Assembly (NCBI GenBank): GCA_963663165.1
Contig: OY760175.1
Location: 3,680,001-3,744,000, forward strand
Direction of reading: 5' to 3'
Length of the DNA: 64,000 nt
From: an uncultured Desulfospira sp.
GTDB taxonomy: Bacteria; Desulfobacterota; Desulfobacteria; Desulfobacterales; Desulfobacteraceae
This document shows, piece after piece, positions 18,385 through 62,892 of this stretch. Position numbers and translations under genes: made by a program. A model generated the notes under the pieces. That model worked only from the letters and a program-made list of their open reading frames with translations. It did not search any database and was not told where the DNA came from. How positions within the stretch are numbered: the stretch's first letter is position 1; the number at the start of each line of letters is the position of its first letter.

Positions 18385-18511
18385 CGAAACAGAAAACAAA
18401 TTATACAATCACCCCAAAAAAATGTATGATGACCTATTTTAGACTTTAGACTTGGGACTTTAGAAAAGTGATCCTAGGGCTGTCTCAAGTTTTTAAAAAA
18501 GGAGGGAAAAA

Positions 18512-19300
18512 ATGAGATGCCATGAAGTCGATTATGAAATTTTCGGAGACGACATGCAGACCGTAGAGGTCGAGCTGGATCCCGGAGAGACTGTTATCGC
18601 CGAAGCCGGTGCCATGAACTGGATGGAAGACGGCATTGCCTTTGAAGCCAAAATGGGAGACGGGTCCGAACCGGACAAAGGGTTCATGGGCAAACTGTTT
18701 GACGCCGGGAAAAGGGCAGTCACCGGAGAATCTCTCTTCCTTACCCATTTTACCAACCAGGGTGCCGGCAAAAAGCGGGTGGCCTTTTCCGCCCCGTATC
18801 CGGGCAAAATCATCCCCGTGGACATGAACATCATGGGCGGGGAACTGATCTGCCAGAAAGACGCTTTTCTGTGTGCGGCGTTAGGGACAAAGGTCAGCAT
18901 TGCATTTAACCGGAAACTCGGGGCCGGATTTTTCGGCGGCGAGGGGTTTATCCTCCAGAAACTGCAAGGGGACGGCATGGCCTTTATCCATGCCGGCGGC
19001 ACCATCGTTAAAAAAGAACTCAACCATGAAACCATCCGGGTAGATACCGGCTGTATTGTGGGGTTCAGCCCGGGCATTGATTATGATATCCAGCGGGCCG
19101 GCAGCCTCAAATCCATGTTTTTCGGCGGAGAAGGCCTGTTCCTGGCCACCCTGTCCGGCCATGGATCGGTTTACCTGCAAAGCCTGCCCTTTTCCCGGCT
19201 GGCCGACCGGGTCATTGCCCATGCGCCCTCTGCCGGCGGATCGGCCAAAGGGGAGGGGTCTCTTCTCGGCGGTATCGGAAGGATGCTGGACGGAGACTAG
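18512..19300 (+). CDS. TIGR00266/AIM24 family protein
   Basis: [33 protein letters not shown]. Confidence 0.9.
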
Positions 19301-19305
19301 CCCGT

Positions 19306-19454
19306 TGTTTGAACGGAAAGCCGCCCATCTGCTGCGTGACAGAAAAATTTGCAACCCTCACAACCTTTCAGGTTGCTCCGGTTGCAAATTTTTCTGCACC
19401 TTGCGTATGGGCAACTTTGTGAGCTAAAGCTCCTCTGGCGAGCCGCCCAAACAC
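19306..19454. repeat. Palindromic extragenic repeat (MITE-like), longest copy of a family also at 17879-17930, 28331-28391 and 54433-54506
   Basis: Shared ends GTGTTTGAACGAAA..CCCATCTGCTGCG and GGGCAACTTT..CAAACAC; internal CAGAAAAATTTGCAACC...GGTTGCAAATTTTTCTG stem. Confidence 0.75.
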
Positions 19455-19489
19455 GGAATCCATCACCACCAAATCAAAGGTTATACGAC

Positions 19490-19978
19490 ATGTGCAATTT
19501 TAAACGCGGGGCGACGGCTCTTTTAACTATAAAACCGGCCATTATCGCGATACTGATTTTTGGATTTCTGGCCGCCCCGGCCTCAGGGGAGCAGATCAAC
19601 TGGAAAAGCTATGCGGCCGGCATCCAGCAGGCCAGGACCCAGCACAAAAAAATATTTCTCCACTTCACGGCAGACTGGTGCGGGTATTGTAGAAAAATGG
19701 ATGCCCTCACGTTTAAAGATGCCGCCGTGATTGATTATTTAAACAAAAACTTTATCAGCATCAAGGTGAACGGGGATAAGGAAAAACAAGTTACCCAAAA
19801 TCATAAAGTCTCCGGGTTCCCGGACAACCGTTTTTATGATGCCAAACTGAACCAGGCCTTCCGTGTGCCCGGTTTTGTGGATCCCATGGCATTTAAATTC
19901 TATATGGAATATGTCAGCACGGACAGTTATAAGGATATGAGCCCCCAGGAATATTACCGGACCAAAACCGGGAAATAA
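19490..19978 (+). CDS. Exported thioredoxin-like protein (SoxW/DUF255-like)
   Basis: Signal peptide; FTADWCGYCRKM; YLNKNFISIKVN. Confidence 0.8.
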   Translation: MCNFKRGATALLTIKPAIIAILIFGFLAAPASGEQINWKSYAAGIQQARTQHKKIFLHFTADWCGYCRKMDALTFKDAAVIDYLNKNFISIKVNGDKEKQVTQNHKVSGFPDNRFYDAKLNQAFRVPGFVDPMAFKFYMEYVSTDSYKDMSPQEYYRTKTGK

Positions 19979-20019
19979 GGATGGGGGGGGTTTTTTCGGA
20001 TTCTATCCCTTGTATCGTA

Positions 20020-20535
20020 CATGAGGATTAGCCCAAGCGCTTCCACCCGTTTCGGTTTTTTCAGAAAGATGGCATTCACAATGGCCGGATCTTTCAGGAA
20101 CCCAAAATTTTTTTCGATTCCATCCTGTTCTTTATAGAGCCTGAGGAGTTCGCCCCCCGACCACTCATGCTCGTTAGCCTGGGCCGGAACGTTGGTTATG
20201 AGTACAAAACAGCCCGCTTCAAGTCTGATCTTTTCTGTTTTTTCAGGATTTTCTTCGACAGTTGCCTTCAGTTCATATTCAATGGCTTTCGGCTTCCTGG
20301 CCTCCCCTTTTTTGGGACGTCCTTTACCGTATTTTGGCACGTCAATGATCTCTGTCCGCACGTTGTAAAGACTTTTTTCTGCTGCTTTGACCAAAATGCC
20401 AGCTGCCACCTCAGCATCCGGGCAACATTTGAAGGGGTTATGAGTCGCCTCTTTGATTTTCTTTTCCAGCTGGCCTTTGTTGGTTTTTAATATTGTTTCT
20501 GACGCCTTTTATCATGGGCACTGGAGTGATATACG
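20020..20535 (-). pseudogene. IS1634-family transposase internal fragment
   Basis: HSSAHDKRRQK (separated by a stop/frame break), GCFVLITN, YKEQDGIEKNFGFLKDP..FLKKPKRVEAL; both termini missing. Confidence 0.8.
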
Positions 20536-20539
20536 GTTC

Positions 20540-20885
20540 ATTTCTCAGGGTATTCGAACAATATAGTACGGTATCTGTCACCGCCCAGGAAACCTATGGG
20601 GACCACTATTTTGAAAGGTGGGCCGGTCCCTCTGGAAATGATCTGGAAGATCCGCCGGTTACATGGCCGCAAAGATCCCTTAACGTTGAGGATGACCGGA
20701 CCATATGCCCGGTTTTCCGCGCTTTTTACAAAGGCGACTTTGACCGGGACAAAGATGTGGATGCCAAAGATTTAAATACGTTTATTCTGCATTATGAAAC
20801 CGTGCGCGCGGACCTTGACGCAAACGGCATCATAGACGATATGGACATAAAAAAACTTGCTGAGAGCTTTGGGAGTGTGCCGTAA
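20540..20885 (+). pseudogene. C-terminal remnant of a surface protein with dockerin/EF-hand-like repeats
   Basis: GDFDRDKDVDAKDL..ADLDANGIIDDMDIKKLAESFG; 5' end abuts the IS1634 fragment. Confidence 0.55.
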
Positions 20886-20982
20886 ATTTTTAAGCATCTG
20901 TCATGACAAAAGAAGCTTTATCCATTGAAAACAAAGGATATATGATGAAAACGCGATATTTTTCAAGACCCCCTTATGGCAC

Positions 20983-21597
20983 TTATTGGCGGGCCATGGC
21001 AAGCCTTGCGCCAAGCAAGGCAAATACGGCGGCAAATGAGCGCTGCATCCGCTGAACCATTTTCGGGGAGCCTGCGATAAACCGGCGGGCATAGTTGGCC
21101 AGCAGACCGTAAAGGATAAACACCACCAGGGTCATTCCCATGAACACTGCGCTCAGGCTGACAAACTGAAACATGGGGGCACCATTGCCGGGGACCACAA
21201 AATGGGGCAGAAAGGCCAGAAAAAAGATAGACAGTTTGGGGTTAAGGATGTTGATTAAAAATCCCCTGACCACTATTTTCCTCAGCCCGCTTGTCTTTCC
21301 AGGAGATTCAAGACGGATCAGGCCCGTATCCTTCCACATGCACCAGGCCAGATAAAACAGGTAAACCGCTCCCGCATATTTAACCGCCTGAAACATGAGA
21401 GCGCTGGTGTGAAGAATGGCGGACAACCCCAAAATGGAGGCCGTCAGGTGGGGAATAATGCCGGTGGTGCAGCCAAAGGCTGCGGCAATGCCGGCCCGCC
21501 GTCCCACAAAGAGTCCGTTTGAAACCGTGTAGATCACACCCGTACCCGGCACCAGAACAACAACCAGTGAAGTGATTAAAAATTCAAGGTTGATCAT
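20983..21597 (-). CDS. LysE/RhtB family translocator
   Basis: VPGTGV, KYAGAVYL, GFLINILNPK. Confidence 0.9.
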   Translation of the reverse strand: MINLEFLITSLVVVLVPGTGVIYTVSNGLFVGRRAGIAAAFGCTTGIIPHLTASILGLSAILHTSALMFQAVKYAGAVYLFYLAWCMWKDTGLIRLESPGKTSGLRKIVVRGFLINILNPKLSIFFLAFLPHFVVPGNGAPMFQFVSLSAVFMGMTLVVFILYGLLANYARRFIAGSPKMVQRMQRSFAAVFALLGARLAMARQ

Positions 21598-21717
21598 AAA
21601 TTTTCCTATATCAATAAGGGCAACAAGGTTTATAATAATCTTAAGAGCAAAATATTATCACAGCAGCTAAAAGAATGATATCCCCCACCGAATTTTGATA
21701 CCGAAAGGAAGAACCCC

Positions 21718-22734: not shown

Positions 22735-22794
22735 CCGTGTTTTGCCGCCGGCCGGCTGCAGCCGGTATAGAAAGCCTGCTGCCGGCTCATAGCA

Positions 22795-23565: not shown

Positions 23566-23849
23566 GATTCTTTTCTCCAAATTCTTAAGGGGGCCCGGCC
23601 CCAATGGCTACAGCAGCCAGGCATTCTATTATCCAATGCAGGCGCCAGCATACTTGAATTTACGGAAGAGCTCAATATTCAGCGGTAGATTTGGGCTGGA
23701 CAGCTGCGGTAAAACCCTTTAAACAGAAAGGCCGAAGGTGTTTAGGCTGAAGGCTGTTAGGGTGGCCTTAACGGCTTTCATGGTTTGCTGCGGGCGTTTG
23801 GCCCGGCTGTGTTATGAGAATCAAAGGGATACAATAGGAAGAAACATAT

Positions 23850-27084: not shown

Positions 27085-27088
27085 TAGA

Positions 27089-27162: not shown

Positions 27163-27181
27163 AGTGAGACACCCTTATAGC

Positions 27182-28644: not shown

Positions 28645-28732
28645 AATAAGCAAGAAAAAGCCACACCCGGGGAAACCCGGGGTCGGAAAGCCAGGGGCCC
28701 TGCTCTTGTCAGATAGTCAGAACTGCCCGCGA
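28645..28732 (+). ncRNA. GEMM-I (cyclic di-GMP-I class) riboswitch-like element
   Basis: GCCACACCCGGG-GAAA-CCCGGGGTCGGAAAGCC...GATAG...TGCC; P2 and junction fit the consensus, P3 pairing is weak. Confidence 0.55.
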
Positions 28733-28917
28733 ACCATGGACCTGGACGTTTATAACGTATCCATCCCCAGGGACCGGTGTTGCGGTGTTCTGTGCATCTG
28801 ACAGACATGGCCGCCGGCTGCCTGCTTTGTCCGGCCCACCGGATAAAGATCGTTCCACCTTTGAAATCATCAAGCTAACTATTTTAAATTAAAGGAAAAG
28901 AGAGAAGGATTAAGATT

Positions 28918-31900
28918 ATGTTGACTCAGTGTATGTTGTCTGGAAAATTTCGGCGGACAGCCGTTTTTTTCTTCATGGCGCTGGTTGCTCTGTGTTCAGG
29001 ATTCTGTTCTTTGCCGGTCCAGGCTCAAATCGACCTGGGCTGGGAGCAGCTGGACACACCGGAACTGCCCCCCTCTATTAAAGCCTATAAAAGCACCGCA
29101 ACCCTTCCGGACGGATCAGCGGTTCAAGCCTGGTATACCATTATCGATCTCAACGACCCCAATGTCGAGATTGATGTGGCATATCCGGGACTGGAAAACA
29201 CAAACCTCACACCGGTCGAGGAGATGAACAACTCCGAAGAACCCGTATATGTGGCCACCAACGGTACCTTTTATAATACCACCACCTATGCATCTGTATG
29301 CCCGATTGTGGATGACGGCAAGATCCTGATACTGCCTCTTCAGACCGCCACTTCCGATGGGGTTACCTACTACCCCACAAGAGGGCTATGGGGGATGAAC
29401 TCGGACCGGGAAAGTCAGGTGGTCTGGGCATTTGGATCCACCGATGACAATCAGATCTTCGCATATGAGGAACCATACCCCAACAGCCTGCTGGAAGATC
29501 CCCTTCCCATGCCGACCCTGGATCCGGCCCAGGATTATGCCCCTGACGGACGGGCCATTCCCACCGGTTATGTTTATGAGCCTGCCGAAGCCATGGGAAG
29601 CTACGGCGTCCTGATCAAAAACGGTGAGGTCCTGGACTATGATTCAACCGATACGGATAATTGTGCACAGGATCTTAACTGCCACTACTGCAACGAACTG
29701 CTGGGCACCAATTTGTCATTTACCCGCCATCCCCGTACGGCCATTGGAACAACCATGGACCGCAAACATATCATCCTCCTGGTGGTTGATGGCCGGTCTG
29801 TGAATTCCGTGGGTGCAACACTGGAAGAACTGGCTGAAATCATGGAAGGAATCGGCGCCTATGACGCACTGAACCTTGACGGCGGCGGCTCCACATCCAT
29901 TACTGTGAACAACTTTGACGGGGTTCTTGAAGCGCCTTCCACCGGTAACGGGGACAACAGCTCCGACGTTCTGAACACGCCCAGCGACGGGTATATGAGA
30001 TCGGTTTCCAATTCCATTTTGATCAAACGCCGGCCCCTATATTTTGATGCCGACACAGACCAGTCCTACTATACGGAAGAAGGAGACGGCTGGTTCCCCA
30101 CCGGGAATTCCGGATCTTATCCCGATGATGACAGCCCCACGCGGCTTGTTGCTACCGTGGGTACAGATGCTCAAGGAACTGCCACGGCGTCCTTTGCCCT
30201 TGAAGGAATCGTGCCTGCTGAATACGAATTGAGCGCATATTGGGTCGGCGCGCCTAACCGGGCCGACAACGCCCCCTTTACCATTGAAAGAAACGGGTTT
30301 GATTCGACGATAGTCCGCATGGACCAGACCGATGCCGATACCCAGTTCAACAAGATCGGTACGTACCACTTAAGCGCCGATGACATCGTGAAGATCACCA
30401 ACAACGCAGACAACGATTATGTTGCCATCGACGCCTTGCGCCTGCGTTATGTTGGGGAAAGTACCCCAACGGTTACGTTAGGGTCTTCTTCCACCATGGC
30501 TGCCATTCAGAGCCAGAAGATTCAGCAGAGCGTCACTATCAGCTCGCCCAACAGCGCGGTTTTTCCCACAAAGATCAATGTGTATAAATCTGTCGATGAA
30601 GGGGAAGAAACACTTTTTGACAGCGTTGATTTTTCCGGTACCAGCCTGACCGAAACCTACACCCTTGACTATGAGGTGACCGAAACCCAGAATTCAACGG
30701 TGACATTCCGGTTTGAGGTAAAGGACAACCATCGCCATACGGTGATGACCAGCATGGATATCAATGTCATGGCCTTCAGCCTGACCTTTGATCCTGAGGA
30801 TCTGGATTCAAGCATGGAATCCGGGGATTCCCTGGCGTTCAACATCAACCTGGATACCGGCAGCCCTGAGGTCACCATGACCCGTCTTACGGTCTATGTA
30901 TCCAGAAACGGCGGGGATCAAGAAATTTATCAGTCCTATGACCTTTCCGCTTCCAGTGAAACCATTGCCTTCAGCTATCTTGCAGAAGACGAGGCCGGAA
31001 ATGAACTGACCTTTACCTTTGTGGGAACCTCCTCGGACGGCAGCCAGTCTGAAACCACCTACACGGTTGCCATTGAGCCGGCAAAGGGGGATTTTACCAT
31101 CGGGTTTATCTCAGACATGAACGGATCCTTTGGCTCCACCACCTATGATTCCTACGTACAGGAAGCCGTGGCCCTGTTTGTCAGCCAGGGTGTGGATCTG
31201 GTGATCAGTGCCGGTGACATGGTGGCAGGGCAATGCTCGACTGCTTCAACCTGTGATGAAGCCGCCATGTGGGAAGGGTTTGACACCGCGATTTACAGTC
31301 AACTCAAGGATGCCGGCATTCCCTTTTTGTTCACCCTGCAGAACCATGATGCCGGGAACAGCTGGGACCTTTCCGCAGCCATTGAATTCTGGACCGATAC
31401 GGACAATGTCCCCCAGGGCACGACCCTGACCATGGTAGATGATACGGATTACCCGAAAAACTACTCTGCTGTGCTGGATTTTGACGGAGACGGAACATAT
31501 GACATCTTTTTTGTTTCCGTATTCAACCCGGGAGACGACCTTGATGAGGATGAGCTGGCCTTCCTGGATGCTACGCTGCAATCAGAAGAAGCCAAGTCCG
31601 CCCGCCTGCGGATCGTGGATACCGGGCAGCCCCTGTACGCTGTAAGCAACCCTAGAAACTCAGCAGGCTATGTCACCGGCCCCAGGGATGAAATTACCCA
31701 AATCCTGCGCGACCGTAACGTGGACCTGTTTGTTTCAGGGGACAGTGCCGCATATTTTCCGGGCAAACGGTTTGATATCAAGATGCTGAGCCTGGCTGAA
31801 ATGGGCGGAACGGGCAAGGCATACATCGGCGAAGACCAGGTGCCGCCCACGGCTGTTACCTGTGCGAACATCTTTAAAAATGACGACTATTACGGTGAAA

Positions 31901-34900
31901 ATGCCATTGTTTTAACCACCTACGACATCTTAAATGATTTTGACATTGTCAGAAAAGAGACCCTGCCCAAAACCCTGATCGGTTTTGATGATGAATTTAT
32001 CATCCGGGATGATACCCCCATCACCAACAGCGGGGCCACCGAGCTTTCCTCCATGAACCTGACCGAGCCCTTTGCCTCAACTGCTGCGGGCAGTGCCACC
32101 ATGATTGTGGGAGACGATACGGTCACCATCCAGGGCTCTTTTTCAGGCCTTGGCGCTTCGCTTCTTTCAAGCTTTGACGCCATCGGCCTTTACCGGGGAC
32201 GAAACGGCGAAGACGGAGAACTGGTCCAGACCCTGGATGTAAAAACCACAAACGCCCTTTCCGGAACCTTTTCGGCAAGCTATGCCAGAACCACGGAAAC
32301 CCTTGATGCTCTGGCCGCAGGACTCTATTACATCCAGATCAATACAGCTGATCTGCCGACAGGTGCCTTAAGAGGCCAGCTTTACAACACTGAAACCAGC
32401 AATGCGCCGGAATCCATCACTTTTACAAACACGGATTCAGGAGATACAGTCAGCGTGCGGAATGTGTCTGCCCTCCTGATTGTTGAATGGACCACAGCGG
32501 AAGATAAAGAAAAATCCCCGGTCACTTATACGTATCAGCTTTCCACATCGGCTGACTTCAGCGAGGGGAGTCTGCTGGTCAACGCCTATGTGGGAACAAA
32601 CAACTATTACCAGGGAATGACCGAAGCCCAATGGCTGGCTCTTCTGGATGGAAGCAGCGAAAAAGTGCTTTACCAGAGAATCATTGCCAGTGACGGACAG
32701 ACCATTGTTATCGGCCAGGCTCAGGAAATCAAATTGACGGAGAACTCAAATCCCGTTGAAGGTGAGGTCACGGTAGAAGCGCCCAACTTCCAATACCAGG
32801 GGATCTTTGCCACCCTGGGTACCGGGTTCACCGTGTATGACATTGCCATTGACGAAACCACCGGCCGTATCTGGGCCAACAACTATTACCATGGTCCTTA
32901 CTGTTTTAATACGGATGGAACCATTCACAAATTCTCTGATTCCGGCATCGGATACGGAACCGATGCCAACGGCAACGATTTCATCAACGCCATAGACTTT
33001 AACGGCAATACCTTTTCCGACGGATATTGCTATGGTGTGGAGTATGACCCGGACGGATATATTCTCGTGGTAACAGACGGCAACCTGTTCAAGCTGGATG
33101 CCTATACCGGCAAGCCGGTTGCCTTCTGGGATTCTCCCACCAGCATAGGCTCCAACCCGTCCATGGCCGATGACAAATCGGTTTTCATGAGTAATGTTTA
33201 CCCGGGCAATGCCGCCTATATTGTTAAACCCAGCAGCACTGTGCAGGGAGAATACGACATTGTTACGGATTTTGGAACAAGCCTTGCTGTATCCGGCAGT
33301 GTAACCAGAACCTCAGCATACTCTCCTGAAGGCGACCGCATTTATCTTGTTCCCACCTCATCCTCCCCTTATGTTTCCGTGTATGCCAGGGTCGACGGCG
33401 AGTGGGTCAGACAGGACAACTTTGAAATGCCCGCATCCACAGGTTCCGACGCCGTGTATGCCGGTGAAAACCAGACCATGTGGGTGATCAACGAAAAAAG
33501 CACCAACCCGCCCAATCTAATATATGTGGATTTTACCAATCAGGAAACCTGGAATCTCTATCTTGAAGATATAGAAGAATCCGATATCCGGGCCATGACT
33601 GTAAGCCGTGACGGTAAAACCGTTTATGTCGGCGGCAGCACGGCCATTTATAAATACCAGGTGGTCGAAGAAGGCACTCAAGAAGATCCAAGCCTGATTT
33701 CCCTGAGCCAGGCCACTGCCCTGGATGATGATGATTCTGCACAGCTTCTGGGCGAAACCGTCAGGGTTCAGGCTGTGGTCACCACATCCAACCTGGCGGC
33801 AGACGGCCTGGAATTCTACGGCGAAGATGCCGGCGACCAGGTAAAATTCTTTGCGGGCACTGTAGTTGACGGGTATACCCCCAAAGCCGGAGACCTTGTT
33901 GAGGTCAAGGGACAGGTCCTTGAAACCCTGGGACAGGTGTACATCCAGCCCGAAAGCATTGAGCTGGTATCCCAAGACCAGCCCCTTGCCCGTCGCCCCC
34001 TGGTGACTGAAATCGGGGAGGATCAGGAGTCCCAGGTGGTTATTATCCCGGGGATTTCTTTGACCGATGCGGATCAGTGGACCAACGATGGATTCTTTGG
34101 TTTTGAGGTGACTGCGGCCAAAGAAGACGGATATTCCTTTAACCTGTTCATTTCCAAAGGCACGGATATTTTTGGAAACGAAGCCCCTGAAGGAACGTTT
34201 ACCGTAACCGGCGTGGTTCAGCAAAAAGGAGATGAGTACATTGTAACCCCTCTGTCCACCATGGATATCGGGCTCGAAGGCCAGGTGAGTACCGCCATGA
34301 TGACCAAATACCTGCCCGCCACCAGCAACCGGGTCACCTTCAGGGCCACTGCCGCCAGATCCCTTGGCCGGGTGAAAACCAGTGCCTATTCCTGGTACCG
34401 AAACGGTTTTCAGGTGGATTCCGACAATGACTGGGAAACGGTAACCGGACGGTTCTATGCCTGCCGGAACCTGAATTACGGCGACGTGCTGGTTGCTCAT
34501 GTAACCACCGCGGACTCTGTTTACCCATACGCATCCATTCCTTTTGCGCTTGGCATGGCTCCGGAACTTTCGGCAGATATAACGGACAACGCCCCTGGCG
34601 AAACCATCACCATCACCTTTGATGAAAACCAGAAATGGGCAGCTGCCATTGAAAAGATCGTCCTGGTTTCAGGAGATCAGGAAATCCTCATCTCCCAGAT
34701 GGGCGGTGAAGGCGAACTCCAGGGCCAGGAAGCGGAAAATCTTGCCCAAAAAAGTGTTGAAGTTGATTCAGCGCAGTATACAGTAAACACCACCGGTATT
34801 GTATTCAGCGCTGAGACTTTTGACCAGGTCGGGACTTACACCGTAATGGTGTATGCGGACGGTTACCGCCTGAATACAGTGGATCAGGAGATCCTTACAG

Positions 34901-37377
34901 CCTCTCCAACTGTTGAAACCGACAATGAGGACAATGACCTGCTCAATGATATCGTCATTACCTTTGAGCCGGATGAGGACTGGGCAGCAGCCGTGACCGG
35001 GGTATTCATCAATGGAACCGCCCTTGAAGCCGGTGACTACACCATAGAAAACGGGCAGCTGATCATCTATGCCGGTGTTTTCCCAGGCGCAGGAACCCTG
35101 ACGGTAACAGTTGAGGCTGACGGCTACACCGACAGGACCTTTGAACAGACCATTGTTCTGTCTACGCCGCCTGCCCTGACCGCTGACACCACCGATAATG
35201 TGGTGGGCCAGGCCATTGAAATTGAATTTGAGGCCAATGCCATCTGGCAGGGCTATATCACTGAAGTCCTGGTGAACGAATCGCCCCTGTCTTCAGATGA
35301 CTATACCATCGACAACGGTGTTCTCACCCTTGTCCCAGGCGTGCTGGGCCAGGTCCGGGAGTACGTCATCACCGTATCGGCGGACAACTTTGACGACACC
35401 GAAGTGGCCCAGCCGGTACTGGCCGCTACCGTGCCTGAGCTGATCCCAGCAGAAGATGTCTCCATCTTTGATGATGTGGTTATTACCTTTGAGGATAATG
35501 CGGCCTGGCGGTCGACTGTCCTCTCCGTAATCGTGGACGGGGAAGCACTGGATTCCAGCGCATGGACCCTTAACCAGGGAAATCTTGTCATTGCAGCCGG
35601 AACGTTTTCAGAAGCTGGCGATTATGAGATTCAGGTAACCGCTGGTGTTGCCTACCAAGTGGCTACGGTCACCCAGACCATTAACGCCCCTGAATATACC
35701 GTTTCCGGAACCGTGACCATGGATGGTTCAGCTCTGGCTTCCGTGGATATTATCCTGGACCAGCTGCTGGAGATGGATTTTGAAGGGAATCTTAACGATA
35801 CCAGCGGCAACGGCAATGAGGCAAATTCAGCCAATGTCCCGGTATATGATGACGATGCAGACCAGGGCCAGATTCTGGATTTTGACGGGTCTTCGGATCT
35901 GGTGAACCTGCCTGACTTTGTCCTTGAAGGAGACTACAGCATCAGCCTCTGGCTCAACCCGGATGTTATTGAAGGGACACAGGGCACAGGGTCTTACAGC
36001 CGCTCTTTCATGGCCTATTATGAGGACAGTGACAATGCCTTCAGGTTTACCATTGAGAACGGATATATCATCGCCTCCATCATCTCAGGCGGCGAAGAGG
36101 TCGGCGTGGGAACCCCTTCGGGCTCGCTTACAGCAGACCAGTGGGTCCATGTCACCATTGTTGTCAAAAAAGGAAAACAGGCGCGGGTTTACCTTGGCGG
36201 CCAAGATCAGACCGATTCTTCCTACGCCTGGAGCCGGGGCACGGATGCAGGGCTTACCCTGGGAGCCAGAAACAGTGGAGGCGGCCATTTCGACGGCCAG
36301 ATGGACAGCCTGATGATCTGGAACCGGGCCCTGACGGCAGAGGAGGTTTCTGATCTTGCCTCTACCGGAAAAGGCCCCAGGGTGGTAACTGGTACCGATG
36401 GGACCTACACCGCCCAGGTCTACTACGGCAAGGACCTGATCCTGAAACCTGAGTTCTCAGGTGTTACGTTTACGCCTGAAATGGCAGGTTTCACCAATAT
36501 CCAGGCCGATATCACCCAGAATTTTACCGGTGAGGGAGAAGTTTCCCTGGCCGTCCCCAACCCAATTGCCAACATGTCGGTGGACACCTCATCCGATCTG
36601 GTGATTGATCTTTCCGCCATGATGGCAGATCCTTCAGATCCACAAGCCCAGGTGTCATACACCCTGGTTTCCAACAGTGATTCTGATTTCATAAATGCCG
36701 TTATTTCCGGTACTGAACTGACACTGTCCTTTAAAGAAGTGTACGGAAAGGCATCCATTGAAATCAAGGGCACGGCCAACGGGAAAGAAGGGTCTGACAG
36801 TTTTATTGTAGAGCTCAATCCCTATTGTGAAGCTGGGGGCGGAGGCGACTGGGAGTATATCTTTGAGGTGAACCTGATCGGCTCTGACGATACCGACCTG
36901 ATGACCAATGAATCCGGCCAGACTCAGTACAGCAATTACCGTTACAGTTCAATCACCCAGGTAACTGCCGGAGAAACCATTACCCTGCGTGTTTCCAGCA
37001 AAGACTGGTCTAGCGACGAGGTTTTGGCCTGGATCGACTGGAACCAGGACGGAGACTTTGAGGATGACGGGGAGACCTACACAGTTGGTACAGGATGGGG
37101 AACCGAGACCCTTGGCACCTACCTGCACGCCTGGTCTTATGACATAACCGTACCCGAAACGGCCAAGACCGGTAAAACCATGCTCAGAATCCGCCACCAT
37201 GACGCCAGCGCAAGCGGTGCCAACACCACCCCCTGCGGCAGTTCAAGTTATGGGGAAGTGGAAGACTACGGTCTGGATATTCAGGCGGCTGCCGGCACGG
37301 ATGACACACAGGTTGAAGCGGCTTCTTCTGCCAGTACCACAAAAAGCCGCGCCAAGGCAGTAAAAAAGAAAAGATAA
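28918..37377 (+). CDS. 2819-aa secreted multidomain protein: NAGPA-like phosphodiester glycosidase, golvesin-like, Ig-like, calcineurin-like phosphoesterase, CHRD, SusE-like, beta-propeller, OB-like, DUF1533-like repeats, LamG, GEVED
   Basis: Signal peptide; HPRTAIG/LNLDGGGST; SDMNG/AGDMV/NHD; GLYYIQINT..GALRGQL; PPALTADTTDN..YTIDNG repeats; QWVHV..FDGQMD..IWNRALT; AWIDWNQDGDFED..GEVEDY. Confidence 0.85.
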   Translation: MLTQCMLSGKFRRTAVFFFMALVALCSGFCSLPVQAQIDLGWEQLDTPELPPSIKAYKSTATLPDGSAVQAWYTIIDLNDPNVEIDVAYPGLENTNLTPVEEMNNSEEPVYVATNGTFYNTTTYASVCPIVDDGKILILPLQTATSDGVTYYPTRGLWGMNSDRESQVVWAFGSTDDNQIFAYEEPYPNSLLEDPLPMPTLDPAQDYAPDGRAIPTGYVYEPAEAMGSYGVLIKNGEVLDYDSTDTDNCAQDLNCHYCNELLGTNLSFTRHPRTAIGTTMDRKHIILLVVDGRSVNSVGATLEELAEIMEGIGAYDALNLDGGGSTSITVNNFDGVLEAPSTGNGDNSSDVLNTPSDGYMRSVSNSILIKRRPLYFDADTDQSYYTEEGDGWFPTGNSGSYPDDDSPTRLVATVGTDAQGTATASFALEGIVPAEYELSAYWVGAPNRADNAPFTIERNGFDSTIVRMDQTDADTQFNKIGTYHLSADDIVKITNNADNDYVAIDALRLRYVGESTPTVTLGSSSTMAAIQSQKIQQSVTISSPNSAVFPTKINVYKSVDEGEETLFDSVDFSGTSLTETYTLDYEVTETQNSTVTFRFEVKDNHRHTVMTSMDINVMAFSLTFDPEDLDSSMESGDSLAFNINLDTGSPEVTMTRLTVYVSRNGGDQEIYQSYDLSASSETIAFSYLAEDEAGNELTFTFVGTSSDGSQSETTYTVAIEPAKGDFTIGFISDMNGSFGSTTYDSYVQEAVALFVSQGVDLVISAGDMVAGQCSTASTCDEAAMWEGFDTAIYSQLKDAGIPFLFTLQNHDAGNSWDLSAAIEFWTDTDNVPQGTTLTMVDDTDYPKNYSAVLDFDGDGTYDIFFVSVFNPGDDLDEDELAFLDATLQSEEAKSARLRIVDTGQPLYAVSNPRNSAGYVTGPRDEITQILRDRNVDLFVSGDSAAYFPGKRFDIKMLSLAEMGGTGKAYIGEDQVPPTAVTCANIFKNDDYYGENAIVLTTYDILNDFDIVRKETLPKTLIGFDDEFIIRDDTPITNSGATELSSMNLTEPFASTAAGSATMIVGDDTVTIQGSFSGLGASLLSSFDAIGLYRGRNGEDGELVQTLDVKTTNALSGTFSASYARTTETLDALAAGLYYIQINTADLPTGALRGQLYNTETSNAPESITFTNTDSGDTVSVRNVSALLIVEWTTAEDKEKSPVTYTYQLSTSADFSEGSLLVNAYVGTNNYYQGMTEAQWLALLDGSSEKVLYQRIIASDGQTIVIGQAQEIKLTENSNPVEGEVTVEAPNFQYQGIFATLGTGFTVYDIAIDETTGRIWANNYYHGPYCFNTDGTIHKFSDSGIGYGTDANGNDFINAIDFNGNTFSDGYCYGVEYDPDGYILVVTDGNLFKLDAYTGKPVAFWDSPTSIGSNPSMADDKSVFMSNVYPGNAAYIVKPSSTVQGEYDIVTDFGTSLAVSGSVTRTSAYSPEGDRIYLVPTSSSPYVSVYARVDGEWVRQDNFEMPASTGSDAVYAGENQTMWVINEKSTNPPNLIYVDFTNQETWNLYLEDIEESDIRAMTVSRDGKTVYVGGSTAIYKYQVVEEGTQEDPSLISLSQATALDDDDSAQLLGETVRVQAVVTTSNLAADGLEFYGEDAGDQVKFFAGTVVDGYTPKAGDLVEVKGQVLETLGQVYIQPESIELVSQDQPLARRPLVTEIGEDQESQVVIIPGISLTDADQWTNDGFFGFEVTAAKEDGYSFNLFISKGTDIFGNEAPEGTFTVTGVVQQKGDEYIVTPLSTMDIGLEGQVSTAMMTKYLPATSNRVTFRATAARSLGRVKTSAYSWYRNGFQVDSDNDWETVTGRFYACRNLNYGDVLVAHVTTADSVYPYASIPFALGMAPELSADITDNAPGETITITFDENQKWAAAIEKIVLVSGDQEILISQMGGEGELQGQEAENLAQKSVEVDSAQYTVNTTGIVFSAETFDQVGTYTVMVYADGYRLNTVDQEILTASPTVETDNEDNDLLNDIVITFEPDEDWAAAVTGVFINGTALEAGDYTIENGQLIIYAGVFPGAGTLTVTVEADGYTDRTFEQTIVLSTPPALTADTTDNVVGQAIEIEFEANAIWQGYITEVLVNESPLSSDDYTIDNGVLTLVPGVLGQVREYVITVSADNFDDTEVAQPVLAATVPELIPAEDVSIFDDVVITFEDNAAWRSTVLSVIVDGEALDSSAWTLNQGNLVIAAGTFSEAGDYEIQVTAGVAYQVATVTQTINAPEYTVSGTVTMDGSALASVDIILDQLLEMDFEGNLNDTSGNGNEANSANVPVYDDDADQGQILDFDGSSDLVNLPDFVLEGDYSISLWLNPDVIEGTQGTGSYSRSFMAYYEDSDNAFRFTIENGYIIASIISGGEEVGVGTPSGSLTADQWVHVTIVVKKGKQARVYLGGQDQTDSSYAWSRGTDAGLTLGARNSGGGHFDGQMDSLMIWNRALTAEEVSDLASTGKGPRVVTGTDGTYTAQVYYGKDLILKPEFSGVTFTPEMAGFTNIQADITQNFTGEGEVSLAVPNPIANMSVDTSSDLVIDLSAMMADPSDPQAQVSYTLVSNSDSDFINAVISGTELTLSFKEVYGKASIEIKGTANGKEGSDSFIVELNPYCEAGGGGDWEYIFEVNLIGSDDTDLMTNESGQTQYSNYRYSSITQVTAGETITLRVSSKDWSSDEVLAWIDWNQDGDFEDDGETYTVGTGWGTETLGTYLHAWSYDITVPETAKTGKTMLRIRHHDASASGANTTPCGSSSYGEVEDYGLDIQAAAGTDDTQVEAASSASTTKSRAKAVKKKR

Positions 37378-38945: not shown

Positions 38946-39658
38946 TGGGGCTTCGGTTCAGTGCTTCGCTTACGCTAACAAATCCCCTTAACCTTCCAGC
39001 ACCGGGCAGGCGTCAGACCCTATACCTCGTCTTGCGACTTTGCAGAGTCCTATGTTTTTAGTAAACAGTCGCTACCACCAATTCTCTGCGGCCCCCAACA
39101 GCTTATTGTGTATACAAATCACCATCAGGGGCATACCTTCTCCCGAAGTTACGGTATCATTTTGCCGAGTTCCTTAACCAGGGTTCTCTCAAGCGCCTCG
39201 GGATACTCTCCCTGCCTACCTGTGTCGGTTTGCGGTACGATCACCTGTTATCTCGATAGAGGCTTTTCTTGGCAGCATGGGTGCAGTCAGTTTATGGGGT
39301 AAACCCCTCCTCATCACTTCTCGGCCTTAGAGTTCCGGATTTGCCTAAAACTCCAGCCTACTAGCTTGAACCGCCTATTCCAGCAGACGGATGACCTGCC
39401 CTCCTGCGTCCCCCCGTCTCTCAAACGATAACAAGGTGGTACAGAAATATTAATCTGTTTTCCATCGACTACGCCTTTCGGCCTCGCCTTAGGGATCGAC
39501 TAACCCTGAGAAGATTAGCTTTACTCAGGAAACCTTGGGCTTACGGCGAGCGGGCCTCTCACCCGCTTTATCGCTACTCATGTCAGCATGGTCACTTGTG
39601 CAACCTCCACACAACCTCACGGTTGCGATTCTTCGGCGGCACAACGCTCTTCTACCAC

Positions 39659-40086
39659 CAAGAAACTAGATACTGGAAACAAGAAACAAGACCTTAACTG
39701 TATCGGTTGATTAAGCCTCGCAGCATTCTTCCGATCTCCTGATATCTTTGATCAAAAAAAGTTTGGTCTTGTTTGCTCAAATACTCAAGGTCTCTTGAAA
39801 ACTCCAGCCATACCCGGCTTTCGTCACATGATCCCATGGCTATTTGAACGAATCTTCTTACATCAGCTTTACTGGATTGCTTGCCCATCCCTTCTGCAAT
39901 ATTTGCCGGGATAGATTTGCTTGACTTCCTTAGTTGTTGAGCCAGTTCATACTGCTCATGCTGGGGAAATCTTAGACTTACTTTGTGCACTTCCAACGCT
40001 AACTGATAAGACTTTTTAAAAACTTCAAGTCTATGGTAAGGCATCATCGCCCTCCTTGTTTCTTGTCTCTAGTATCTAGTTTCTTG
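39659..40086 (-). other. 23S rRNA intervening sequence 1 (helix 45 position), ~428 nt, ORF-bearing
   Basis: Between ACGCTCTTCTACC and CCGCAGCTTCGG; 32-nt inverted arms (30/32 match) built of 7-mers. Confidence 0.92.
39694..40047 (-). CDS. Four-helix-bundle protein (23S rRNA IVP family, Avd-like fold)
   Basis: LEVFKKS..FPQHEQYELAQQLRKSSKSIPANIAEG..IAMGSCDE; AAGGAGG RBS; same strand as the rRNA. Confidence 0.93.
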   Translation of the reverse strand: MMPYHRLEVFKKSYQLALEVHKVSLRFPQHEQYELAQQLRKSSKSIPANIAEGMGKQSSKADVRRFVQIAMGSCDESRVWLEFSRDLEYLSKQDQTFFDQRYQEIGRMLRGLINRYS

Positions 40087-40170
40087 ATCCGCAGCTTCGG
40101 TACTATGCTTTAGCCCCGATACATTTTCGGCGCAGATCCACTCGACCAGTGAGCTGTTACGCTTTCTTTA

Positions 40171-40698: not shown

Positions 40699-40835
40699 CC
40701 AAGAGACTAGAAACAAGAAACTGGAAACAAGATTTCGAACACTCGGTAACTTCCGGTGCCTGTTCAGCCCATTTAAATTGGGCGCCGAAGGCGCTTCGCC
40801 CTCTTGTATCTTGTTTCTTGACTCTAATCTCTTGG
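40699..40835 (-). other. 23S rRNA intervening sequence 2 (helix 25 position), ~137 nt, no ORF
   Basis: Between AAAAGGCACGCGGTAA and CTCCCACAGCTTGTA; 34-nt inverted arms (28/34 match) of the same 7-mer family. Confidence 0.88.
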
Positions 40836-40918: not shown

Positions 40919-41706
40919 GGTTCGCTATCGGTTGCCAAGTCGTATTTAGCCTTATGTGATGGTCCACACTAATTCCCACAGAATTCCTCGTGTTCCGCAG
41001 TACTTGGGAGTACAATCAGGAGATCGATTATTTTCGCTTACAGGACTGTCACCTTCTTTGGTTAAGCTTTCCAGCTCATTCAACTAATAATCAATTTTTT
41101 TACTCCTGGAATCATCCGAAACTGATTCGCATGCATCCCGCGACCCCGATAACGCAACGCTTTCGGGCTTACACGTTACCGGTTTGGGCTGGTCCCCGTT
41201 CGCTCGCCGCTACTTGGAGAATCGTTTTTACTTTCTGTTCCTGGGGGTACTAAGATGTTTCAGTTCTCCCCGTTACCCTCCTTAACCTATGGATTCAGTC
41301 AAGGATGACACAGTATTGACCGTGTCGGGTTGCCCCATTCAGAAATCTCCGGATCAATGGGTGTTTAGCCCCTCCCCGAAGCTTATCGCAGCTTTCCACG
41401 TCTTTCTTCTTCACTTGGCACCAAGGCATCCGCCGTTTGCTCTTAGTAGCTTAGCCACTATTCCACAAATAAACTTAAACGCTTTGATGTTTTTGAAAAA
41501 ATTGCGATCTTCGGCGTTGCTTCACAAAATTTTTAAAACGACATAGCCTACTATGCCTTATTTAAAAATTTTGTTCGCGCCTTGAAGCTCATCAATTTTT
41601 TCTTCAACATAGCTCGCAAAAGTCTGATCAACATCAAACTCTCACGATTTATGATTAATTCAGTTGCCTTTACGGCAACTGCGCAATTGATATTTACTAC
41701 AACAAA

Positions 41707-41719
41707 TTTTCAAAGAACA
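41707..41719 (-). promoter_or_regulatory. Spacer boxA antitermination site
   Basis: Revcomp TGTTCTTTGAAAA; leader boxA TGATCTTTGAAAA at 43450-43462. Confidence 0.75.
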
Positions 41720-41805
41720 TGACAGATCCGGCTACTCTTGTTCACCGTTTTGATCTCTCAAAATTGGCCAGTGATAGCCTTAAAGCTTTTTTTATCTTTC
41801 CTTTG

Positions 41806-46761: not shown

Positions 46762-46866
46762 CGTATTAGGCTGAAGGCTGAAGGGATTTAGGCTGAAGGT
46801 AGAACAACCATAAGCCCCCCCTTCAGCCTAACCCCCTTCTACCTAAACCCCTAATTTAAGGACCCC

Positions 46867-58997: not shown

Positions 58998-59341
58998 GGC
59001 ATTCTCCTGAATGTAACTCATCGCAGAGCAACTTAATTGTATACGATTACAATATGTTAACCGGAAACCCATTGGCCAGTGACCCTTGAGAACGCGCGAA
59101 AAAATCAAACCGGTTAAGGGTTTTTGAAAGCCCCGTAAAATCGTCAGCCCCTGACGGATTTCAGACCTTTATCGACCGGAACAACACGTCAACCCGGATA
59201 TTTCATGAAAGGATTACAAAAAAAACTATACGTCTTTCATTCATACCTGTCAATTGCGGCTCGAACCGGTTCCGGGGTGATCGCATGCGGATAGCCCGCT
59301 GATGACGGCAATTTTGACGATAAGGATAATAATGTATATTG

Positions 59342-59420
59342 TTGAGACTTGGGATATGGGACTTGGGGAGGCCGTGGATGCCGCAATCCCCAAGTCCCAT
59401 ATCCCAAGTCCCAAGTCCAA
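59342..59420. repeat. Heptamer (TGGGAYW) inverted-repeat hairpin; sister copy at 62640-62714
   Basis: gacttgggatatgggacttgggga ... tccccaagtcccatatcccaagtc. Confidence 0.85.
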
Positions 59421-59467
59421 TTTTTTGGAGATTCTCCTTATTTCCCATTCCAGGGTGGATTGTTTTT

Positions 59468-60592
59468 TTACATGCGATGGCCCTGTGAAACGATCCCGCT
59501 GCCCCGGGCCGAATCATATGCCGGGCGGCCCTCAAAATCAAAGATAACCACCCGGAAAACAATCCGGTCCCCTGAAAAGGTTCTGGTGGTTTCCAGAATA
59601 TTGGTGCCCACATGGGAAAGGATGGACGGATAGTTCGGATAAATATAGGTGAAGGCGTGCCGGGCCGTGTTGGCGGCCTTTATGTTCTCAGCCAGTGGCC
59701 CGTTCCCGGTTAGGTTTTGGGCCCATTGGGCCAGCCGTTCCATGGTCAGCTCGGATTTGGCCGCATGGGTGTGTTCAAACCCCAGGGCCATTTTAACCGC
59801 CTTTCCAAAAAAAACCGTATAGGTAATCTGTTTTATGGTCTTCTTAACGGCCTCGTCTATGGCGGCTTTAAAAAAATCCCCGGTCTGGATAAAGGCCTCC
59901 TCACTGAGGTCTGGGAGAAGGTCCATGGCCAGCCGCTCGCTTCGCCTTCCCGTGGTAAACACCAGGTGGTCAATCCCCCTGGCCGCTGCCACGGATATGG
60001 ATGAGCCGATGGTGGCAATATAAGCCTCATGGGACAGGGGGCGCACAATACCGGTGGTCCCGAGAATGGAGATTCCGCCCAGGATGCCCAGCCGGGCATT
60101 CAGGGTCTTTTTGGCCAGTTCCTCCCCTTTGGGCACAAAAATTTCAATGGTTACGTGAAATGAAGATTGAACGGAAAACTGCCTGAACACGGAATCCACA
60201 GCCCGGCGAATCATTTTCCGGGGGCCGGAATTGATGGCCGGCTGGCCCACTTCAACCTCCAGGCCCGGCTTGGTCACGGTTCCGACACCCTGTCCCCCCT
60301 GGATATCAATGCCCATCTGCTTTGCAGGGGAAAGGGTGATTCTGGCCCCGATCTGGGCCTTGTGGGTAACGTCGGGATCATCCCCGGCATCCTTGATGAT
60401 AACGGCCTCACAGCAGCGTTCTGAAATTCGGGTAACCCTTTCTACCGGAACAGTCCGGGTTTCTCCGGTTAAAAATTCAATCTCAACCGCATCCGGGATA
60501 TTCCCTGACACCAGGTTGACCAGTGCGGCCTTGACCGCAGCAGATGCCGCCGCCCCCGTGGTAAAGCCTTTCCTTAGCCGTTCAGTTCCCAA
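59468..60592 (-). CDS. cbiD: Cobalt-precorrin-5B C1-methyltransferase
   Basis: LRKGFTTG, KDAGDDPDVTH, GVGTVTKPGL, GGISILGTTGIV; probable TTG start. Confidence 0.95.
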   Translation of the reverse strand: MGTERLRKGFTTGAAASAAVKAALVNLVSGNIPDAVEIEFLTGETRTVPVERVTRISERCCEAVIIKDAGDDPDVTHKAQIGARITLSPAKQMGIDIQGGQGVGTVTKPGLEVEVGQPAINSGPRKMIRRAVDSVFRQFSVQSSFHVTIEIFVPKGEELAKKTLNARLGILGGISILGTTGIVRPLSHEAYIATIGSSISVAAARGIDHLVFTTGRRSERLAMDLLPDLSEEAFIQTGDFFKAAIDEAVKKTIKQITYTVFFGKAVKMALGFEHTHAAKSELTMERLAQWAQNLTGNGPLAENIKAANTARHAFTYIYPNYPSILSHVGTNILETTRTFSGDRIVFRVVIFDFEGRPAYDSARGSGIVSQGHRM

Positions 60593-61985
60593 TGGTATCC
60601 CTGTAAGCCCGGCATGAAGCAACAAACCGGCGGGCGCAGCCCGGGTTGGAGCCAAAATGAACGTGCATATATGATCCCAGGGTCTGAGCGGTCTGGTACC
60701 CTTTCAAGGCAAGTTCCTGACCGGACCTGGACCTGACCTGATAGACATTTTTAGTGCAAACCGGTGTTTTTGTATCCTGGATGGCGGAATAGTGGAATTC
60801 ATGGCCCCGGATCACATCCCCTTTCCGGCCGATCAGGGTATCTTCCTGAAGCACAATTTCACGGTACCCCAGAGCCCTGAGCCGTTTGGACATCTGAATG
60901 GAAAAATCAAAGCAGCCGGCCATGGGAAAAACCATATCCCCGTCCATGACCTGGCGGCATAAAAACATAAACCCGCCGCACTCCCCGTATATGGGCAGGC
61001 CGGCCAGACTGAGATTTTTGATTTCGGCCAGCAGCTCTTTTTTTCTGGAAAGGATTCCGGCATGAACCTCGGGATATCCCCCGCCAAAATAGATACCGTC
61101 AATGCCCCGGGGCAGATGGTCCTGCCTTAAGGGGGAAAACTCAACGATCCGGGCGCCCTGCGCCTTGAGCTGATCAATGTTATCCTGATAATAAAAACAA
61201 AAGGCCTCGTCCCGGGCCAGGGCAATGAGGGGGCCGTCCCCGGAACCAGCGACCGATGCCGGCAAAGGGGGGGGCGCCTGATCCGAAACAGGTTCCGGTG
61301 ATACCGGTTTCAGGTCTTTGATAAACCGGTCCATGTCAAGATTTTCATCAACCATGGAGACCAGGGTGTCCAGCACTTTGGGAGAAATTTCCCGCTCATC
61401 AGCCGTGACCAGCCCCAAATGGCGCTCGGGCATGACAATTTCATCGTTCCGGGGCATGTGCCCCAAAACCCTTGTGGTGCAGTGCTGCTCTACGGCGGTT
61501 TTCAAATATTCGTAGTGAACCTTGCTGCCGGTCCGGCTGAAGATCACCCCGGCCAGCTCAAGGTCCGGATCAAAGGATTCAAACCCCTTGACCATGGCAG
61601 CGGCACTTCTGGCCATGCCCTTGGCATCCAGGATCAACACCACGGGAAGCCCCAGCCATTTGGCCATCTGGGCCGTTGACCCGGTCTCGGACACCCCGTC
61701 ATATCCGTCAAAAAGCCCCATCACCCCTTCTGCCAGGGCAATGTCCGCCCCTTTGGACCCCGTGTCAAACAGATACCGGTTATACGCCCTGGTCAGCATC
61801 CAGGAATCCAGATTCACACTGACCCGGCCGGCAATCTTAGTATGATGCCCCGGGTCAATAAAATCCGGCCCCACCTTAAACGGCGCAACTTTTATCCCCC
61901 GGGAATTTAACCAGGCCAGAAGGGCCATGGTAATGGTGGTTTTTCCCGATCCCGAACCCGTAGCGGCAACAACAAACCCTTTCAT
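60582..61985 (-). CDS. cbiA: Cobyrinate a,c-diamide synthase
   Basis: SGSGKTT, FKVGPDFIDP, EGVMGLFDG, ERHLGL, GECGG, GHEFHYS. Confidence 0.95.
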   Translation of the reverse strand: MKGFVVAATGSGSGKTTITMALLAWLNSRGIKVAPFKVGPDFIDPGHHTKIAGRVSVNLDSWMLTRAYNRYLFDTGSKGADIALAEGVMGLFDGYDGVSETGSTAQMAKWLGLPVVLILDAKGMARSAAAMVKGFESFDPDLELAGVIFSRTGSKVHYEYLKTAVEQHCTTRVLGHMPRNDEIVMPERHLGLVTADEREISPKVLDTLVSMVDENLDMDRFIKDLKPVSPEPVSDQAPPPLPASVAGSGDGPLIALARDEAFCFYYQDNIDQLKAQGARIVEFSPLRQDHLPRGIDGIYFGGGYPEVHAGILSRKKELLAEIKNLSLAGLPIYGECGGFMFLCRQVMDGDMVFPMAGCFDFSIQMSKRLRALGYREIVLQEDTLIGRKGDVIRGHEFHYSAIQDTKTPVCTKNVYQVRSRSGQELALKGYQTAQTLGSYMHVHFGSNPGCARRFVASCRAYRDTIGN

Positions 61986-61995
61986 CCTTCAGCCT

Positions 61996-62619
61996 TCATC
62001 CTTCATCCTTTCCAACCGCCATCATAGCCAACGCATTGACCACCGCCGCAGCCACATTAGAGCCCCCTTTCCGGCCTTTGTTGGTAATATAGGGGATATC
62101 CAGTTTCATGAGTTCATCTTTGGATTCAGCGGCATTGACAAACCCCACCGGAAACCCGATGACCAGAGCAGGGGAGGCTTTGCCTTCCCGGATCAGCTCA
62201 ATCAGGCGCAACAGGGCCGTGGGGGCATTTCCCACCACGTAAATCCCCTGGGACAGCTCTTGGGCTGCCGCATCCACGGCTGCCAGTGCCCGGGTGGTGC
62301 CGGCGGCTTTGGCCTTAGCGGCAATGTCGGGCTCGGCAATGAGGCACTGAACCTGTCCGCCGAACTGACTGATCTCTTTTTTCCGGATCCCCACCCGGGC
62401 CATGTTGGTATCCGTAAAAATCTGATTTCCCCCGCGGATGGCCGCTATCCCTTGTTCAACAGCATCCTTGTTAAACCGGATGGTGTTAATGTACTCAAAA
62501 TCCGCACTGGTATGGATAATCCGCCGGACGATGGGCCATTTTTCCCCGTCAAAGCCATGATCTGCCGCTTCCTGATCGATGATTTGAAAACTTAATGTTT
62601 CAATTTCCTGTGGTTTCAT
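61996..62619 (-). CDS. cbiC: Precorrin-8X/cobalt-precorrin-8 methylmutase
   Basis: RRIIHTSADF, GNAPTAL, PVGFVNAAESK, GRKGGS. Confidence 0.95.
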   Translation of the reverse strand: MKPQEIETLSFQIIDQEAADHGFDGEKWPIVRRIIHTSADFEYINTIRFNKDAVEQGIAAIRGGNQIFTDTNMARVGIRKKEISQFGGQVQCLIAEPDIAAKAKAAGTTRALAAVDAAAQELSQGIYVVGNAPTALLRLIELIREGKASPALVIGFPVGFVNAAESKDELMKLDIPYITNKGRKGGSNVAAAVVNALAMMAVGKDEG

Positions 62620-62892
62620 CAATATTCCTTTTTTTTAAAGGATATGGGATATGGGACATGGGGTTGCCTTGCGGCTTTTCCCGCATGTCCCAAGTCCCAT
62701 ATCCCATATCCCAACCCGGACTTATTCGTTGTGGCCGTTTCTGATCAAAATCCTGTCGGCCCGCCGCCGTTATTGATGTTGATATTTTTTAGCCAAACTA
62801 CCACCTTTAGGTTGTTTTTGGCAACTATCCTGCTAAAATACCGTTCAAATGCTGGTTTGGATAAAAACCTTTTTAAGGAGTAAATTTAGACA

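Follow-up and report, generated by a model that had tools for sequence, protein, structure and literature searches.

The 64,000-nucleotide stretch analyzed here (the window, C1:3680001-3744000) belongs to the genome of an uncultured Desulfospira sp. (GCA_963663165.1, G000) and contains arrays of tandem heptamers in several sequence flavors, one pair of which encloses a four-helix-bundle gene inside a 23S rRNA gene. We think it somewhat probable that the arrays are the arms of one type of cassette, which would consist of a left arm, a four-helix-bundle gene and a complementary right arm, that gene-less hairpins and lone arms are likely remnants or re-entry sites of such cassettes, and that the predicted protein pentamer binds the five heptads of an arm. 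Arms of all flavors have a common RG register and a left-then-right polarity. Comparisons among genomes indicate that gene and arm flavor travel together to unrelated loci, and that filled, gene-less, lone-arm and empty states exist at orthologous sites. The inserts are seen in transcribed places (gene junctions and the 23S helices that we take to be helices 25 and 45), where by their sequence the arms can supply a stop codon, a ribosome-binding site or a start codon. Ordinary MITEs (miniature transposable elements with inverted repeats) evidently carry and multiply gene-less hairpins.

The arrays are real, and they occur throughout the genome, not just in the window as a preliminary description of this DNA had it; all nine array coordinates given there are correct. 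Period-7 runs number 431 in G000 vs. 1 in a block-shuffled genome, with 264 runs at period 14, 89 at period 15 and 0-46 at periods 4-13. Unit patterns, hand-built from the flavors observed in G000, define 713 arms in register (5 in the shuffled genome), 653 of them intergenic, and five flavors dominate. Converging arms, with an inward-facing partner within 150 nt, outnumber diverging ones 345 to 18, and the partner is of the same flavor in 308 of the 345. Flavors are mixed in register within 67 arms. The arms that switch flavor mid-run place RG at heptad positions 4-5 in every flavor; G also stands at position 5 in 58% of the heptads that immediately adjoin the matched units and were not chosen by the patterns. 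The arms had been described as usually inverted; this holds for five of the nine window sites, which are closed hairpins, and for the 345 converging arms of the genome, and fails for the four window sites that are lone arms. The idea that period rather than sequence is conserved likewise stood in part. Period 7 is dominant, but periods 8, 9 and 15 are also present, RG is kept in register, and the arms of one cassette are identical at all 70 sites in two genomes (see below).

Lone left arms lie a median of 26 nt past a stop codon and lone right arms a median of 47 nt before a start codon, by our own rough gene calls, which missed the gene at C1:1448354. The genes flanked by arms share no common function. 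We looked for other gene families as arm-enclosed cargo in G000, among 24 pairs of left and right arms spaced 150-1500 nt and 48 genes with arms tightly on both flanks, and rejected them: the only tight cassettes of one flavor are the two copies of the rRNA insert, and the remainder are ordinary genes with arms at both junctions.

Such arrays might instead be independent simple sequence repeats, made by slippage and inversion and kept as translation or stability signals, with the gene only a frequent lodger. The roughly 700 arms vs. 3 gene copies in G000, the hairpin-rich genomes without the gene and the resemblance of the native cobB start to a heptad would fit this, as would the positions of arms past stops and before starts, which is the rule of the Xanthomonas and Nostoc heptamers (PMC4692102). 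However, simple repeats do not predict a register and polarity common to five flavors, nor the cross-genome correlation given below, nor that the lone arm at 61978 has the flavor of a cassette clade found at the same site in one relative (G121) and elsewhere in another (G182). We regard this explanation as quite unlikely.

The two rRNA inserts are built as follows (folding z-scores here and below are from mononucleotide shuffles).

39658-40087, minus strand: gene-bearing 23S intervening sequence, 430 nt, in helix 45, replacing a 16-nt stem-loop
40052-40086, minus strand: its left arm, five CAAGA-type heptads, the end of which is the ribosome-binding site
39694-40047, minus strand: its four-helix-bundle gene, 117 aa, PF05635/TIGR02436
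39659-39693, minus strand: its right arm, five complementary heptads
40700-40834, minus strand: gene-less 23S intervening sequence, 135 nt, in helix 25, replacing a 12-nt stem-loop; z -6.3

The arms of the gene-bearing insert pair into a stem of about 33 bp, and those of the gene-less insert also have five heptads each (40799-40833 and 40700-40734). Inserts are present in two of the three G000 operons. The operon at C1:2123855-2129071 lacks both, and comparison with it by eye revealed no target duplication at either insert. Both inserts are absent from all 17 rRNA operons of five relatives. Among sequencing runs, the closest shared at most 0.54 of the words; assembly of four gave one 490-nt contig identical to the gene-bearing insert (run X1, low depth) and no RNA ends, and in none of three RNA/metagenome runs were the inserts covered in one piece. 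The 16S-23S spacer at 41457-41805 is without tRNA, and that of the operon at C1:1022968 has two tRNA-like genes.

The open reading frame (ORF) enclosed by the insert matches PF05635 (E 1e-33, 116.2 bits vs. a cut-off of 33.8) and TIGR02436 (114.8 bits vs. 24), and it is the only gene enclosed by a pair of arms in the window, as had been noted. It falls below the cut-off of the profile for Avd, the accessory protein of diversity-generating retroelements (DGRs; NF033474, 36 bits vs. 80); no reverse transcriptase or template/variable repeat adjoins the gene, which has 23S rRNA on both sides. The structural relatives of the window protein, 2GSC (E 1e-13) and 2RLD, have five chains each, and by analogy we infer a homopentameric ring. 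G000 has two PF05635 genes over the cut-off (3 copies), all within inverted arms, of two different flavors. Among the 25 nearest relatives of the window protein, 21 lie in the 23S rRNA of many phyla with related arms (some rows are operon copies of one genome), 18 of them in helix 45 and 3 in helix 25 (L143, L151 and L153). Because these last relatives carry the gene, the helix 25 site, where G000 has no gene, also occurs in gene-bearing form. In an alignment of 35 loci, the polar residues Q, R, S, N, E, G, R, S, and E are near-invariant and could form a binding or catalytic site. G000 also has divergent four-helix genes with a C-terminal extension at C1:4153705 and C1:2501870, beside 9-mer or 10-mer repeats; the latter gene has a premature stop.

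Across the order, PF05635 is found over the cut-off in 86 of 121 genomes. At the best 30 gene loci, a period-7 score of at least 14/21 was reached upstream in 16 and downstream in 22, vs. 3 of 54 control windows, which bears out the link between heptamer arms and four-helix-bundle genes drawn in the preliminary description. Arms of period 15 also occur at some gene loci. For 35 loci, arm similarity averages 0.36 in the 38 protein pairs with at least 55% identity vs. 0.055 in pairs below 45% (protein-arm association: Mantel 27/2000; a tblastx control was made), and flanking genes are shared in none of the 38 close pairs. As judged from these alignments, arm flavor follows protein clade while the neighbors change. 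The PF05635 count correlates with hairpin excess over 120 genomes, in which kin are not independent (rho 0.42; -0.002 for the reversed-pattern control). An end motif shared around the clade L009, L012, L014, and L017 was considered as a terminal repeat and rejected, as no target duplication accompanies it.

The gene-bearing insert could be compared with one further genome. Of 151 family genomes, 44 matched, and a contiguous match to the gene-less insert was found in G203 only, where it is a shorter homolog; G203 also has the gene-bearing insert. Between G000 and G203 the 70 arm sites of the gene-bearing insert show 0 differences and the 351 ORF sites show 70 (43 of 117 third positions, 27 of 234 first and second positions); the comparison shows the ORF to be conserved, evidently under purifying selection. 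These two genomes, whose ORFs are 20% apart, have the same A-C mismatch and the same G-U pair in their arms. In this one genome pair, the arms seem to be held more tightly than pairing alone needs. In the gene-less insert the arm sequences of G000 and G203 differ, with pairing retained.

These data bear on a reading in which the cassettes have the same ancestry and the arms matter only as a stem, the protein being a passenger, or acting elsewhere, and not reading the heptads. About 35 bp is what fold-out and RNase III cleavage need, any complementary arms would serve in helix 25 or 45, and the Coxiella insert is cut by RNase III (PMC4990558). The diverged, still paired arms of the gene-less insert and the near-neutral core of the protein are likewise what such a reading would expect. 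A stem, however, needs neither period 7, nor an RG register, nor fixed polarity, and it would not call for an identical mismatch and G-U pair in genomes with ORFs so far apart, or for purifying selection on the ORF. We consider a role as stem only to be unlikely.

Outside the rRNA genes, the other array sites of the window were compared with relatives (genomes have G-numbers and loci L-numbers; G121 is the sister species of G000).

3574-3606, minus strand: lone left arm, CAAGA flavor; z -0.5
18438-18465, plus strand: lone left arm, TTTAGAC and TGGGA units mixed in register; z -1.1
23728-23762, plus strand: lone left arm, AGGMTGA flavor with 7+8 alternation (period 15); z -3.0; common to G121
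46766-46854, plus strand: closed gene-less hairpin, AGGMTGA flavor; z -6.2
59342-59420, plus strand: closed gene-less hairpin, TGGGA flavor, cargo of a MITE; z -9.9
61978-62011, minus strand: lone left arm, AGGMTGA flavor, at the cbiC-cobB junction; z +0.5
62640-62714, no strand assigned: closed gene-less hairpin, TGGGA flavor, upstream of cbiC; z -9.3

The array at 61978-62011 provides the stop codon of cbiC and the start codon of cobB. In G121 the left arm at this junction is the same and is followed by a four-helix-bundle gene (TIGR02436, 79.5 bits) and then by a right arm that is degenerate. That gene has its closest relative (72%) in G182, with the same arm flavor at another locus. Among the best 30 of 109 matched cbiC-cobB junctions, 26 have no array, 3 have a lone left arm and 1, in G121, has the full cassette. 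Since G121 is closer to G000 than is G122, and G000, G122, and G259 all keep an outgroup-like cobB start, entry of the cassette into a resident arm appears more parsimonious than repeated exact loss; allele exchange is a possible alternative. In most relatives (L181-L207) cobB apparently starts with ATT or ATC, and the last heptad supplies ATG in array-bearing genomes.

Other sites add further states. G121 has a second four-helix gene, placed within a period-8 left arm; in G000 the hairpin in question has no gene. Arms of this period-8 family are found in G000 at C1:5777060-5777300 and C1:5785612-5785765. Four relatives lack the TGGGA-armed G000 cassette (C1:1448354), and G000 in turn lacks one G122 cassette, with no arm left. 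No target duplication was seen by eye at the three filled/empty pairs outside rRNA. Within the window, the array at 18438-18465 is an eroded hairpin whose right arm is kept in G121. The hairpin at 46766-46854, in which 7- and 8-nt units alternate (period 15), lies between a znuA-like gene and an ABC ATPase gene and is present in G121 and not seen in G122; that at 62640-62714 is absent in both. Gene-bearing and empty members of one class, proposed from the window sequence, are thus found as alternative states at orthologous rRNA and non-rRNA sites, and with them the presence/absence polymorphism that would be looked for.

Two of the nine window sites are cargo of ordinary MITEs, which the preliminary description had missed.

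59273-59485, plus strand: MITE with CAGGG-type terminal inverted repeats, carrier of the 59342-59420 hairpin
3387-3776, no strand assigned: 153-bp MITE with GTAAC ends and an 8-bp duplication, carrier of the 3574-3606 array

The CAGGG MITE, whose ends we take to be ISAs1-like, has 35 other closed copies, 14 of them with exact 9-11 bp duplications; the copy in the window has lost its exact target duplication. A single backbone slot in 26 copies holds a TGGGA hairpin in 11, CCGG in 8, AGGMTGA in 4 and none or a remnant in 3. Both backbone subtypes occur with all three flavors, and the loops share a short GCGCATCC-like motif. Three flavors in the same slot suggest that hairpin flavors may be interchangeable there. 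No closed copy has a transposase; loose matches to the end motif lie near DDE genes. Two copies, C1:2421228-2423515 and C1:3194680-3196232, contain what by eye are an ORF of 469 aa resembling a reverse transcriptase and a pair of RelE/HigA-like genes; the former, by eye a group II intron, is in the longest copy. The second carrier holds an insert of 243 bp (3461-3704) made up of two dispersed repeat units in tandem, with the array inside it. The region 3547-3606 matches the gene-less 23S insert's left half at 88% identity, and G000 has 74 such half-elements, the right arm being present only in the 2 rRNA copies. The dispersed unit at 3610-3704 has no terminal inverted repeats and about 200 near-full copies in G000, often in tandem. 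In G121 the flanks of sites 3575 and 59342 are rearranged.

These carriers raise the question of whether the arrays are merely internal sequence of ordinary MITEs, as they are at two of the nine window sites and as would suit the 39 of 167 TGGGA arms that lie within 250 nt of a CAGGG end. In the genome, however, just 65 of the 713 arms lie close to these ends (for the AGCT flavor, 2 of 264), so that MITEs multiply some hairpins and do not explain the class. Dereplication leaves 452 arms, and the rRNA inserts and gene cassettes have no target duplication. The MITE explanation is therefore largely refuted as a general account and highly improbable as such, while it is true for a minority of sites.

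If the arrays are cassette arms, the stem would fold the insert out of its transcript, and by analogy with Coxiella we infer that RNase III would cut it from the pre-23S RNA. There is perhaps an even chance that the ring binds one RG-bearing heptad per subunit, again by analogy. As for movement, the cassette has neither a recombinase nor a reverse transcriptase of its own; we tentatively propose that recombination at heptad-like seeds, or at resident arms of the cassette's flavor, lets it into new sites with an enzyme acting in trans, and that it spreads among rRNA operons through recombination of the conserved flanks. Gene loss, slippage and erosion would leave the roughly 700 orphan arms. 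A stronger version, which we consider doubtful, is that the pentamer is a sequence-reading ring on five RG heptads and drives homing, the gene re-entering arrays of its own flavor and leaving arms behind.

TRAP provides an analog for yet another role of a ring, in which the protein is a host regulator that sits on heptamer arms in mRNA leaders and trailers and tunes translation or decay, its own arms being autoregulatory. The bias of arms to stops and starts and the purifying selection on the ORF are compatible with this, and a repeat-binding regulator has been proposed for TAACTGA repeats (PMC4679880). The genes, however, are patchy and at unrelated loci, three of the five G000 flavors are without a cognate gene, and the genes next to the arms have no function in common. 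We judge a host regulator to be very unlikely.

Several observations weigh against the cassette reading itself, or parts of it. Five heptads, the number per arm given in the preliminary description, is the commonest arm length (313 of 713 arms; 151 of 452 after dereplication), and at 61 gene loci arm counts fall from 13 to 2 upstream and from 17 to 1 downstream between five and six heptads, but this mode is biased by the counting threshold of three units and by the 23S clade. Both sides reached the period-7 score at only 13 of the 30 gene loci, and several have direct, 8-mer or 9-mer arms. That flavor follows clade is expected from linkage alone. Enrichment by presence/absence is weak (31/85 vs. 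7/35, p 0.09), and the two genomes with the most pattern matches of the 121, G030 (772) and G012 (709), have no PF05635/TIGR02436 gene over the cut-off, at 91 and 89% completeness in fragmented assemblies. The commonest G000 flavor, AGCT (264 arms), is among those with no cognate gene in G000. The arm identity comes from a single genome pair. The core net charge of the family proteins, -3 to +8, is near neutral, and Avd is described as positively charged. The Coxiella S23p protein is reported as probably not made in vivo (PMC4990558). Finally, in 800 kb of the 6.6 Mb of G121, 27 of 31 resolved G121 sites and 28 of 36 G000 sites are common to both genomes; therefore most orphan sites are old and eroding in place. 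Overall, the earlier interpretation is partly supported.

The window has other features that touch none of these subjects: a further multicopy repeat at 19306-19418 (more than 20 matches in G121), a protein of 2819 aa with NAGPA, metallophosphatase, LamG and four Shr-like domains and the c-di-GMP-I riboswitch upstream of it (28650-37377), and a 12-bp tandem repeat of 3.8 copies within a coding region (7030-7075).

ORF-bearing and ORF-less rRNA inserts have been published (PMC4990558; 10.1101/2024.02.27.582315). Those most like ours are the 23S intervening sequences of Coxiella burnetii and Leptospira, which are sporadic and have a terminal stem and an S23p/PF05635 ORF; helix 45 is the insertion site in C. 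burnetii (PMC4990558). The Coxiella insert also has tandem heptamers, GACAGAT, upstream of the ORF, which the accessible text does not treat as an element family (PMC4990558). G000 differs in that helix 25 has a gene-less sister, the design recurs outside rRNA and roughly 700 orphan arms of five flavors are scattered over the genome, and in that its ORF looks conserved and not decaying. The likeness of PF05635 to Avd has been published (PMC10053308), and the two share a fold family and a pentamer (10.1101/2023.10.23.563531; PMC10053308). All five Avd protomers contact its RNA stem-loop (10.1101/2023.10.23.563531). The window protein differs from Avd in its NF033474 score, its lack of a neighboring reverse transcriptase or template/variable repeat, and its core, which is not strongly basic. 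MITEs and repetitive extragenic palindromes (REP/REPIN) are likewise short, dispersed, intergenic, hairpin-forming and non-autonomous, and some hairpins ride MITEs; the cassette differs in its long internal tandem arms, its linked four-helix-bundle gene and its lack of target duplication and transposase.

Known dispersed heptamer repeats include the short tandemly repeated repetitive (STRR) sequences of cyanobacteria. Convergent heptamers have been described as GGGAATC in Xanthomonas and GGGGA(C/T)T in Nostoc (PMC4692102) and as TAACTGA in Beggiatoaceae (PMC4679880). They share with the G000 arrays period 7, intergenic position, convergent pairs and few units per array, and the purine arm after stops and pyrimidine arm before starts are also met in G000. 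They differ in having one flavor per genome studied and were explained by G-quadruplexes or translational control (PMC4692102, PMC4679880), whereas several G000 flavors cannot form G-quadruplexes. The accessible portions of PMC4692102 and PMC4679880 make no mention of a helix bundle, S23 or an intervening sequence, and a search that covered neither subscription journals nor supplements found no paper linking dispersed heptamers to a four-helix-bundle gene. Specific to the present case are several flavors in one register, a lone arm that faces a cassette of matching flavor, a single genome whose rRNA alleles include filled, gene-less and empty ones, arms better conserved than the ORF, and flavor exchange in one MITE slot.

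The cassette reading would join three open items: what a large family of proteins with a solved ring structure does, how 23S intervening sequences arose and why bacteria have an excess of heptamers. It points to a candidate ligand, an arm of five heptads that keep RG in register, and alleles in the filled, gene-less, lone-arm and empty states are available in nature. Some heptamer arrays regarded as regulatory may be element scars that took over stop and start signals. If the homing version were true, the bacterial heptamer-repeat excess and the heptamer-armed intervening sequences of rRNA would both come from a homing ring, which would also be plausible as the ancestor of DGR Avd.

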